From positions 98,060 through 162,059 of the forward strand of contig CAVOXZ010000011.1 of NCBI GenBank assembly GCA_963700555.1: 64,000 nucleotides of DNA, in the 5' to 3' direction. The position numbers and the translations under genes are program-made. Source of the DNA: an uncultured Chloroflexia bacterium. GTDB taxonomy: Bacteria > Chloroflexota > Limnocylindria > Limnocylindrales > CSP1-4. Shown one piece after another: positions 1 through 64,000 of the stretch. The stretch's first letter is position 1, and the number at the start of each line of letters is the position of its first letter. Under the pieces are notes generated by a model. The model made no database searches. It saw nothing but the letters and a program-made list of their open reading frames with translations, and had not been told where the DNA came from.

Positions 1-1
1 C

Positions 2-580
2 GACGGCGCCGCGCCCAGCCAGGCCGCCGATTCGGACGCCGACGACGGGCGCCTGTTCTGCTACCGGCACCCGGACCGCGAGACGTGGGTCCGATGTGGC
101 CGCTGTGATCGCCCGATCTGTCCCCGGTGCGCCATGCAGGGGCCGGTCGGCTTCCGCTGCAAGTCGTGCGGCAAGCCGGCCTATGACCCGCTGACGTCGA
201 TGAAGCCGAAGCAGGCAGTCATCGGCGGCCTGGTCGCCGTCGGCGCCGGCGCGCTCGGCGGGCTGCTCGGGCTGCAGCTCGGGTTCTTCATCATCATCGT
301 CGGGTTCTTCGCCGGTGGCCTGATCTCGGACCTGGTGATGCGCTTCACCGGCTACAAGCGAGGTCCGGCGATGGCGGTGATCCTGCTGGGCGGGATCGCG
401 GTCGGGACGGTCATCGCGTTCGGCATCTCCTACGGGATCACGCTCGTGCGATTCGCCGGGTCCGCGGAGGGCGAGGCTGTCGTGTACCCGTTCCTCGCGT
501 ACCTCGTTGACCAGGGTGTGTGGGCGCTGGTGTACGCCGGAGCGGCGATGGCCGGCGCGTGGGGTCGCCTCCGCATCTGA
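2..580 (+). CDS. membrane protein with N-terminal CxxC zinc-ribbon region (5' end cut by window edge)
   Basis: The frame of ORF 134..580 stays open back to nt 2. Upstream in-frame residues read CYRHPDRETWVRCGRCDRPICPRCAMQGPVGFRCKSCG (three CxxC pairs). About 4 Gly/Ala/Ile-rich hydrophobic helices follow. TGA at 578-580. Confidence 0.6.
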   Translation, partial: DGAAPSQAADSDADDGRLFCYRHPDRETWVRCGRCDRPICPRCAMQGPVGFRCKSCGKPAYDPLTSMKPKQAVIGGLVAVGAGALGGLLGLQLGFFIIIVGFFAGGLISDLVMRFTGYKRGPAMAVILLGGIAVGTVIAFGISYGITLVRFAGSAEGEAVVYPFLAYLVDQGVWALVYAGAAMAGAWGRLRI

Positions 581-598
581 GGTTCGGTTCCCCGAACC
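581..598 (+). terminator. stem-loop directly after stop codon (candidate terminator, no U-tract)
   Basis: GGTTCGG-TTCC-CCGAACC, a perfect 7-bp stem starting 1 nt after the TGA. Confidence 0.3.
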
Positions 599-664
599 GC
601 CCGGTCGCGGGCGCCGTTCCCGGGCCCGAACCGCCCGGCGGACCAACCATCGGCCGGGACCGAC

Positions 665-744
665 ATCCGGTGCGCCCGGCGGCACGTTCGTCCAGTCGGC
701 GCGCCCGCGGGCGGATATCCGGTGCGCCCGGCGGCTCATTCGTC
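665..744. repeat. 28-nt imperfect direct repeat pair in intergenic spacer
   Basis: atccggtgcgcccggcggcacgttcgtc (665-692) versus atccggtgcgcccggcggctcattcgtc (717-744). Two mismatches, period 52 nt. Confidence 0.6.
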
Positions 745-779
745 TGAGCCACCGGACCCTTGGTCCGGCCAGCGCACCG

Positions 780-807
780 CCGATCGAGGACCGCCGATCG
801 AGGACCG
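780..807. repeat. perfect 14-bp tandem duplication
   Basis: ccgatcgaggaccg occurs twice back to back (780-793, 794-807). Confidence 0.7.
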
Positions 808-61684: not shown

Positions 61685-61882
61685 GCACGCTGGCGGATGA
61701 TGTCCGTGGGAACGACGACTGGCCGGGTCGACGGTCGCCCGGCGAGTTCCGGGAAACGGATCGCTCGTCGCCGACGCCATACCTCGTGAGGCGGCAGACG
61801 GTCGCCTGCCACGCACCACGGCACCATGTCGCGGTGCTTCCGCCAGGGGCAGCGGGCTCCGCCAGCCCCGTCACAGGAGGTC

Positions 61883-62320
61883 ATGATGCGCGTCCCTCTC
61901 CTTCGCCCGCTCGCGGCCGCCCTGGTCGCGGCGTCTCTCCTCGCACCCGGGGCCACGGCGGCCACGAAGGGTGAGATCACGCTCACGGTCGGTGCCTTCG
62001 GCGGCCCGGAGACGTTCGTCGCCAGCGACGGCTTCTTCTGCCCGTCGGGCACGGCCGTCAGCTCCAACTTCCGCTTCGCCGGCGGAGGCCGGGCCGGCAC
62101 CTTCCACCTGGACAAGACGTTCACCTGCGACGACGACTCCGGGACGCTGACCATCCACCTGAACGCAGCCACGGCCAACGGATCGCCCCAGGACCAGGGT
62201 GGCTGGAAGGTCGTTGGTGGCACCGGCGCCTATGCCGGCACCAAGGGCGGCGGCAACCTCGTCGGCGACTATGTCGACGGCGGCGTGATCGACCACTACA
62301 TGGGCGTGCTCACGCCCTGA
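61883..62320 (+). CDS. small secreted protein
   Basis: AGGAGG RBS. Signal peptide MMRVPLLRPLAAALVAASLLAPGATAA. No family recognised. Confidence 0.6.
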   Translation: MMRVPLLRPLAAALVAASLLAPGATAATKGEITLTVGAFGGPETFVASDGFFCPSGTAVSSNFRFAGGGRAGTFHLDKTFTCDDDSGTLTIHLNAATANGSPQDQGGWKVVGGTGAYAGTKGGGNLVGDYVDGGVIDHYMGVLTP

Positions 62321-62475
62321 CCCTGCTTCCTCGCGCCTCACAGGCCGGCGGTCCTGGCTCGGGACCGCCGGCCTCGTCGACCCGGTCGCGCTCGAGGCCG
62401 ACCGGTTCGATCGAGTGACCGGGCCAATCGGCGCGCCCACCCAGACCCGCCCAGCCCTGGAGGTGCCAGACCATC

Positions 62476-63792
62476 ATGCGTGCGTCCCCCACGCGATCCC
62501 CGCGGCTGGCAGCGCTCGTCCTCATCGTTGCCGCCTGCTCCCCGACGGCACCGTCAGGGTCCGGCGTTGCGACCCCGCCGCCGGCATCACCGGCCACGCC
62601 GTCCGCGTCCACCATCGCGCCATCGCCCGCCCCCTCGCAGTCGGCGACGGACAGACCCTTGAGCGGGACCTATCCGGTCAACGGTGACAGCGTCTTCCTG
62701 GAGTGCCACGGGACCGGCACCCCGACCGTCGTGATCGAAGCCGGGCTGGGCCAGGACAGCGCCGCCTGGGACGGCGTCGTCCGCGATCTCGCGTCGACCA
62801 GTCAGGCGTGCCGTTACGATCGTGCCGGCGTCGGCCGGAGCCTTGCGGACGAACCGGACGCCGACCACTCGGTTGGCGATCGAGCGGTCGGGCTCCACGA
62901 TCTGCTCGCGGTCGCGGGGATCGGGGGTCCGTACGTCCTGGTCGGGTTCTCCTACGGCGGGATGCTCATCCGCGCGTTCGCCGACCGGTACCCGGCCGAG
63001 ACCGCCGGCTTGGTCTTCGTCGACAGTTCCCACGAGGAGCAGTTCGCACCCGGAGGCTGGTGGCTCGACCAGCAGCCCGAATGGGTCGACGGCCGCAGCG
63101 GCGTGGACCTTGCCCGCAGCCGGGCGGAGCTGCTGGTCGCGGCAGACCTGGGAGACCGGCCGATGATCGTCCTCACGAACGGCCGGATGACCGGCGAGAT
63201 CGAGCGCCGGTGGTCGGGGCTCCAGGACGTGATTGCCGGGATGTCCTCGAACGTTGTCCACATGGTGGCGACCGAGGCCGGGCACGACATCCGCGCAGAC
63301 CGACCGGACCTCGTCAGCGAGGCGATCCGGGCTGCCGTGGGGGCCGTGCGAAGCGACGAGCCGGTACCGGCCTGCGGGCCACGCTTCGAAGCGCATGGCG
63401 CCGAGTGCCTCGCCGGAACGCTGGCCGACCTGCTTGCCCGGTGGGACGATGCGAGGCGCGCGATCACGCCCGCCGCCGGCGACCTCCCGGCCGGCACGTA
63501 CACGTTCACGCAGGACGGCTCCACGGTCACCCTGGCCATCGCCGGCGGCCACCTCGACGTCCGGTTGCGGCACCCCGACGGCAGTCGAGAAGGGTTCACC
63601 GCCGACTACGCGGAGGCCGGTGGCGAGGTCGTTGTCCGGTGGCCGTTCGACTGGCGAATCCCGCGGACGTCCGGCGTCAACCGGGCCAGCTGGACGGCCG
63701 ACCGGGACGGCACGCTCCACTTCGTCCAGCTCGACGACGAGGTCACGGAGCTCTGGCTGGCGACCCCATGGACCCCCGCGAAGACCCGATAG
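62476..63792 (+). CDS. alpha/beta hydrolase lipoprotein with extra C-terminal domain
   Basis: Lipobox LIVAACS followed by a Pro/Ser/Thr linker. Hydrolase core with GFSYGG elbow. Intact 438 aa. Confidence 0.8.
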   Translation: MRASPTRSPRLAALVLIVAACSPTAPSGSGVATPPPASPATPSASTIAPSPAPSQSATDRPLSGTYPVNGDSVFLECHGTGTPTVVIEAGLGQDSAAWDGVVRDLASTSQACRYDRAGVGRSLADEPDADHSVGDRAVGLHDLLAVAGIGGPYVLVGFSYGGMLIRAFADRYPAETAGLVFVDSSHEEQFAPGGWWLDQQPEWVDGRSGVDLARSRAELLVAADLGDRPMIVLTNGRMTGEIERRWSGLQDVIAGMSSNVVHMVATEAGHDIRADRPDLVSEAIRAAVGAVRSDEPVPACGPRFEAHGAECLAGTLADLLARWDDARRAITPAAGDLPAGTYTFTQDGSTVTLAIAGGHLDVRLRHPDGSREGFTADYAEAGGEVVVRWPFDWRIPRTSGVNRASWTADRDGTLHFVQLDDEVTELWLATPWTPAKTR

Positions 63793-63853
63793 CGCCGACG
63801 GGCCGAACCCCCGCCCGTCTGCAGACCGCGGGATCCTGCGGCACCATTCACCG

Positions 63854-64000
63854 ATGTCGTCCCCGCGTCTCCTCGACCCCGATTCGCCCGAGGCGCTCGT
63901 GCGGGCTGCCGTCGCCGGCGACGTCGACGCCTTCGCCCGCATCATCCGCCTCCACCACGCGGCGATGACGCGGACCGCCCTGGTGGTCACCGGAGACCTG
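63854..64000 (+). CDS. ECF sigma factor, N-terminal fragment (runs off window)
   Basis: Hand translation from the ATG at 63854 gives MSSPRLLDPDSPEALVRAAVAGDVDAFARIIRLHHAAMTRTALVVTGDL, a typical ECF N-terminus. This frame is not in the supplied track, because the ORF is open at the window edge. Confidence 0.55.
   Translation, partial: MSSPRLLDPDSPEALVRAAVAGDVDAFARIIRLHHAAMTRTALVVTGDL

Follow-up and report, generated by a model that had tools for sequence, protein, structure and literature searches.

Do the many reading-frame breaks in conserved genes of an uncultured Chloroflexia bacterium (Limnocylindrales, CSP1-4) reflect the biology of the organism or the way in which its genome was assembled? 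The question is raised by a stretch of 64,000 nucleotides (nt), hereafter the window (positions 98,060 to 162,059 of contig CAVOXZ010000011.1, or C11:98060-162059 of source genome G000). The original prediction, made from the sequence alone, had described frame breaks in 14 conserved genes of this window with a strong bias towards surplus bases, and had proposed either a systematic consensus artefact with local low-quality stretches or real decay of selected genes. We infer from comparison with related genomes that the breaks are very probably a consensus artefact of long-read metagenome assembly, because the insertions and deletions (indels) are private to this genome, biased towards insertion, genome-wide, clustered, free of accompanying extra substitutions and present in essential genes. 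In the organism itself the genes are almost certainly whole.

The source genome comprises 3.3 Mb in 22 contigs with 72% G+C and reaches only 72.5% marker completeness; for several further congeneric genomes of few contigs the values are 71-77%. Its 23S rRNA gene lies inside a 318-kb contig, and an rRNA gene within a long contig is typical of a long-read assembly, not of a short-read bin. Reading frames were tracked with a codon-usage model from 627 long open reading frames (ORFs) of the genome and a seven-state Viterbi path, which over the window showed many same-strand frame switches, nearly all signed as one surplus base. The comparison set consisted of syntenic regions of four genomes of the same genus, with nucleotide identities to the window of ~85-92% (G012 and G015) and ~75-80% (G013 and G006). 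The ORF products of these relatives were aligned to the window by a frameshift-aware protein-to-DNA dynamic programme, and junctions were checked in five-way nucleotide alignments. Gene identities were confirmed against NCBIfam or Pfam; broken genes were scanned by way of their intact orthologues in the relatives, apart from the PxKF protein and psuG, for which the pieces present in the window served.

By frameshift-aware alignment to the four relatives, at least 23 frame breaks are secure, in 10 of the 14 genes listed earlier, and several more are probable. Nearly all breaks consist of a base, mostly G or C, that is private to this genome where the four relatives agree with one another, and none of the breaks is shared with any of the four, in which the orthologous sites are in frame and read as ordinary triplets. 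The predicted excess of surplus bases, with three breaks in the opposite direction, was borne out, as the secure breaks in the window divide into ~20 surplus versus 3-4 missing bases (binomial p = 0.0015). Under a strict private-indel criterion the window holds 16 insertions versus 3 deletions, and the ~83 kb of the contig covered by this comparison (only 2 kb of the aligned sequence is non-coding) holds 20 versus 6 of 1 nt. Stretching the comparison to 184 kb yielded only a few more sites, since the relatives lose synteny with the contig. The genes concerned are listed below with their window coordinates, strand and breaks.

994..2563, + strand: PxKF / SWM-repeat protein; one surplus base, 2314-2364
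2603..3700, - strand: selD (selenide, water dikinase); private 1-nt insertions at 3075, 3244 and ~3538
3702..4620, + strand: ABC transporter ATPase (ABC ATPase families); one surplus base at ~3985
7787..8456, + strand: membrane protein; probable surplus-type switch at ~8251 (Viterbi +1 to +2, coding statistics only)
10461..11957, - strand: second MttB-family methyltransferase; private 1-nt insertions at 10606, 10744 and 11106
37426..38343, + strand: corA (TIGR00383, from the orthologue); private insertion at 37786 and private deletion at 37854
38582..39700, - strand: citrate synthase (citrate synthase families); nine private insertion events
41643..42400, - strand: pgl (6-phosphogluconolactonase, TIGR01198); private 1-nt deletion at 42302
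52663..54732, - strand: S9-type peptidase; missing base at ~53986 and private insertion at 54697 near the N-terminus
54715..55714, + strand: psuG-like gene (Indigoidine_A); private 1-nt insertion at 55420
57852..58777, + strand: DMT transporter (DMT/EamA-type families); private insertions at 57995 and 58049
59553..60255, + strand: ECF sigma factor; probable surplus base at ~60088 and missing base at ~60150 (G012 comparison only)
60261..61681, + strand: anti-sigma-like gene; net surplus-type change near 60340-60433 (G012 and Viterbi only)

The alignments reproduced the number of breaks counted previously in the PxKF (1), selD (3), ABC ATPase (1), second MttB (3), corA (2), pgl (1) and psuG (1) genes. 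In the S9 peptidase gene, which matches Dpp5-like and peptidase families, the single predicted break was recovered as the missing base at 53986, but the additional insertion at 54697 had been overlooked; likewise, both predicted breaks of the DMT gene were found, but a further close -1/+1 pair at 58475/58492 had been missed. The breaks proposed in the membrane-protein and lipoprotein genes (7787-9096) come from coding statistics only, these genes having no orthologue in the relatives and no Pfam match, and those in the sigma and anti-sigma genes are probable. In the PxKF gene, whose product matches the Pfam family SWM_repeat, the Viterbi path switches from +0 to +1 at 2364, and alignment to the orthologue in genome G003 puts the 1-nt surplus at ~2314. 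The extra bases in selD are missing from all four relatives, and the orthologue matches TIGR00476. For the ABC ATPase gene, G015 is the sole relative that aligns at the nucleotide level. The Pfam match of the psuG-like gene (PF04227) runs to position 193 of the 291-position profile, where the break falls, and the two indels of corA form a compensating pair, 68 nt apart. Next to corA, G012 and G015 carry ~1.2 kb extra between it and the gene at 35603-37402 (window 37266-37278), which the window, G013 and G006 do not have.

Read through its three insertions, the product of the second MttB-family gene has 96% amino-acid identity to G012, and its orthologue matches TIGR02369 below cut-off. It is one of two tandem MttB-family paralogues (10461-13522, - strand) with ~50% mutual identity, of which the neighbouring copy is intact. 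Neither paralogue has an in-frame TAG and both score below the trimethylamine methyltransferase cut-off, and they are probably non-pyrrolysine members of the family.

The densest group of breaks lies in the citrate synthase gene, with insertions at 38612, 38648, 38840, 38993, 39197 (4 nt), 39240, 39253 (2 nt), 39270 and 39558. These nine indel events produce seven net frame changes, the number originally reported for this gene, and the clustering noted at the same time is supported by the nine events falling in 1.2 kb where ~0.65 would be expected (P ~3e-8). When read through, the protein is 87% identical to that of G012, like its intact neighbours, and the conserved motifs are kept.

Apart from the frame breaks, the broken genes look undamaged. 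Private substitutions at conserved columns amount to 2.57% in tiles with indels versus 2.51% in tiles without, and across ~16,000 aligned codons there is one true premature stop versus more than 30 frame breaks. That single stop is an in-frame TAG at 48690-48692 in a gene at ~48201-48824 (+ strand), opposite a GAG (Glu) codon of G012. The next 44 codons are still conserved with those of G012 (95% identity overall), and the gene has no Pfam match; a substitution error may be responsible for the TAG, or it may be a genuine site of nonsense or read-through. Elsewhere in the window, at 51717-51728 (gene 51696-52634), this genome alone has 12 extra nucleotides (CCGGCCGCGGCC) that keep the frame; they resemble a tandem copy of the 12 bases just before them.

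About 85% of the inserted bases are G or C, matching base composition. Junctions had been described as sitting in short G/C runs, which holds for part of them: about half of the mapped insertions (n = about 20) lengthen runs of 1-2 identical bases, while several stand between unlike bases. A recurrent motif among the sites (GTG to GTCG, or an extra G after GCCGGC) was considered and dissolved once all sites were listed in codon phase.

The unbroken genes of the window form an internal control. Of those named previously as free of breaks, tkt, zwf, selA, selB, the sbcC-like gene and the amidohydrolase gene proved to be so; opcA and sbcD are also unbroken. Control genes with their coordinates are the following.

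17602..20993, + strand: selA and selB (TIGR00474, TIGR00475); unbroken, without consensus frameshift events
42416..45420, - strand: opcA and zwf; unbroken
49386..51464, - strand: transketolase (tkt); unbroken, TIGR00232 matching over 3-652 of 654 in one frame

The sole frameshift events near tkt fall upstream of the gene start. The window also encodes a complete selenocysteine set, consisting of tRNA-Sec (called by ARAGORN at window ~5451-5549, C11:103510-103608), selD, selA and selB. Within this set only selD is broken, which argues that the breaks are not real.

The pattern extends across the genome. Frame tracking gave ~750 candidate breaks genome-wide, 565 of them surplus and 191 missing, or 2.3 per 10 kb, and the density in the window (2.5 per 10 kb) is typical of the genome. 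Many of the calls of missing bases are natural gene overlaps, as seen on inspection of a random sample, so the true insertion bias is stronger than these counts. A random sample of broken genes included those for DNA polymerase III alpha (dnaE), release factor 1 (prfA), GlpK, IlvD, PBP1A, AceE and others, and in each sampled gene one continuous hidden Markov model match spans the junction. Breaks are over-dispersed (variance-to-mean ratio of 2.0 in 5-kb bins), and 25% of the gaps between them are shorter than 500 nt versus 11% expected. Contigs differ four-fold in break density (chi-square p = 4e-11). This last result points to an artefact, because read depth and consensus quality follow contig boundaries and a mutational process would not.

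Three of the four relatives show the same behaviour at other positions. Private 1-nt insertions versus deletions number 11 versus 3 in G012 (plus five 2-nt insertions), 13 versus 2 in G015 and 7 versus 1 in G013; these multi-contig genomes thus have insertion-biased breaks of their own, and the single-contig G006 has almost none (1 versus 2). The G015 orthologue of the amidohydrolase gene (window 23579-25265) is split into four overlapping ORFs by surplus bases of its own. The contigs of the relatives carry 'contig_NNNNN' names in ENA metagenome assemblies, the naming style of Flye.

ARAGORN made 58 tRNA calls on the source genome. There was no tRNA-Pro among them, and several calls, for Ala, Asp, Arg and Gly, were over-long (91-98 nt); these irregularities are probably due to incompleteness, to indels in tRNA genes or to false calls in GC-rich DNA. 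The only ARAGORN call of a tRNA with an 8-base anticodon loop (four-base anticodon gctg) maps within a coding region, folds poorly with weak stems and was set aside as a false call.

Taken as an artefact of long-read assembly, the contig consensus would contain single extra bases for the most part, besides a few insertions of 2 or 4 bases and a few single-base deletions. A consensus drawn from too few or from conflicting reads may leave some stretches error-dense and others clean, and low local coverage may have caused the clusters. The underlying data were probably Nanopore reads assembled with Flye and lightly polished. Frameshift errors are known to lower the marker completeness of long-read metagenome-assembled genomes (MAGs), with the worst effect at low coverage (PMC8103633), and the present genome likewise combines a contiguous assembly (22 contigs) with depressed marker completeness (72.5%). 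The breaks resemble the long-read consensus frameshifts detected by IDEEL-type tests for truncated ORFs and treated by frameshift-aware correction or polishing (PMC8103633, PMC12007338, PMC9262707) in that single-base indels split conserved genes, completeness is low despite contiguity, no substitutions accompany the indels and the breaks would be denser where coverage is low. A very large catalogue of soil MAGs was built by Nanopore-only metaFlye assembly with a single Medaka round and reports effects of sequencing error in low-coverage MAGs (PMC12313526); membership of the source genome in this catalogue could not be shown.

Several observations weigh against this explanation. The errors do not follow the textbook profile: in high-GC genomes the residual long-read errors are mostly deletions of G or C in homopolymers of 4-6 bases (PMC8574707), whereas here insertions dominate by at least 3:1 and 0 of about 20 mapped insertions lie in a run of four or more identical bases. 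Shallow depth, a mixture of strains or a polisher prone to over-insertion could each explain insertions outside homopolymers. No intact copy from the same species was present among more than 7,800 intact homologues of the read-through citrate synthase in public protein collections, the best of which is 88% identical. Neither rpoB (3.5 kb) nor the 23S rRNA gene (C8:95827-98878) contains a private indel, although this is not unexpected, since at a rate of only 2.3 per 10 kb these are tests of little power. The 23S rRNA gene has 17 private substitutions at columns that are invariant in six relatives, versus 2-8 per relative.

Real gene decay, in which the genes would have been inactivated by genuine frameshifts, would account for the concentration of breaks in certain genes (seven net changes in citrate synthase, three each in selD and the MttB paralogue) and would suit a broken MttB-family gene with an intact paralogue next door. 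We nevertheless regard it as highly unlikely. Elsewhere in the genome the breaks interrupt essential genes such as dnaE and prfA, intact selA, selB and tRNA-Sec accompany a broken selD, and break density varies by contig. Bacterial mutation is biased towards deletion, the opposite of the insertion excess seen here. The pseudogenes of reductive evolution, as in Mycobacterium leprae or recently host-restricted symbionts, also involve many frameshifted genes, but the present case differs in striking essential genes, in having no excess of substitutions and practically no nonsense codons in broken genes, in lacking a deletion bias and in sharing no break with any relative. The part of the original prediction that allowed for decay of selected genes is therefore not upheld. 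Translational recoding, by +1 frameshifting or four-base codon reading, would keep the genes functional as written, and it fits the observations that the majority of breaks amount to exactly one extra base and that read-through products are well conserved. In programmed +1 frameshifting (for example in prfB) and with four-base suppressor tRNAs, one surplus base likewise stands between conserved frames. There, however, the likeness ends: the 16 mapped sites comprise at least 12 kinds of four-base word, and the extra base can occupy any of the three codon positions, so that no conserved shift site emerges; 2-nt and 4-nt insertions and single-base deletions are mixed into the same genes; the orthologous sites in the four relatives are ordinary triplets; no matching tRNA was found; and ~565 sites genome-wide would demand many suppressor tRNAs. 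Recoding is thus scarcely credible, the least probable of the explanations weighed.

A different possibility concerns the source of the errors and falls within the artefact explanation as one form of it, without truly competing with it. Close strains or species that co-occurred may have been collapsed into one consensus, and polishing would then have created spurious insertions in the stretches that they share. The clustering of breaks and the differences in density between contigs agree with this, as does the origin of many congeneric genomes in apparent sister ENA assemblies; but tiles with indels are neither closer to nor further from the relatives than other tiles, and we consider such a mixture possible yet rather doubtful as the origin. 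It is also very improbable, slightly more so than wholesale gene decay, that a minority of the breaks are real (the corA pair, or citrate synthase as a pseudogene) or that the genus tolerates surplus bases by recoding, as nothing positive supports either; if it were so, the compensating +1/-1 pair in corA would recode 22 residues.

The above analyses indicate that the frame breaks are almost certainly an assembly artefact without biological meaning, as the first of the two explanations originally offered had it. A bias towards insertion away from homopolymers is unusual as a signature of error, and it may be of interest for the polishing of high-GC long-read metagenomes. For this species-representative genome, approximately one gene in five is probably split by spurious frameshifts, which makes its gene calls, pseudogene counts, completeness estimates and pathway reconstructions unreliable; within the window, selenium use, the tricarboxylic acid cycle and the pentose-phosphate pathway are affected examples. 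The same caution is due for several sister genomes within the genus.

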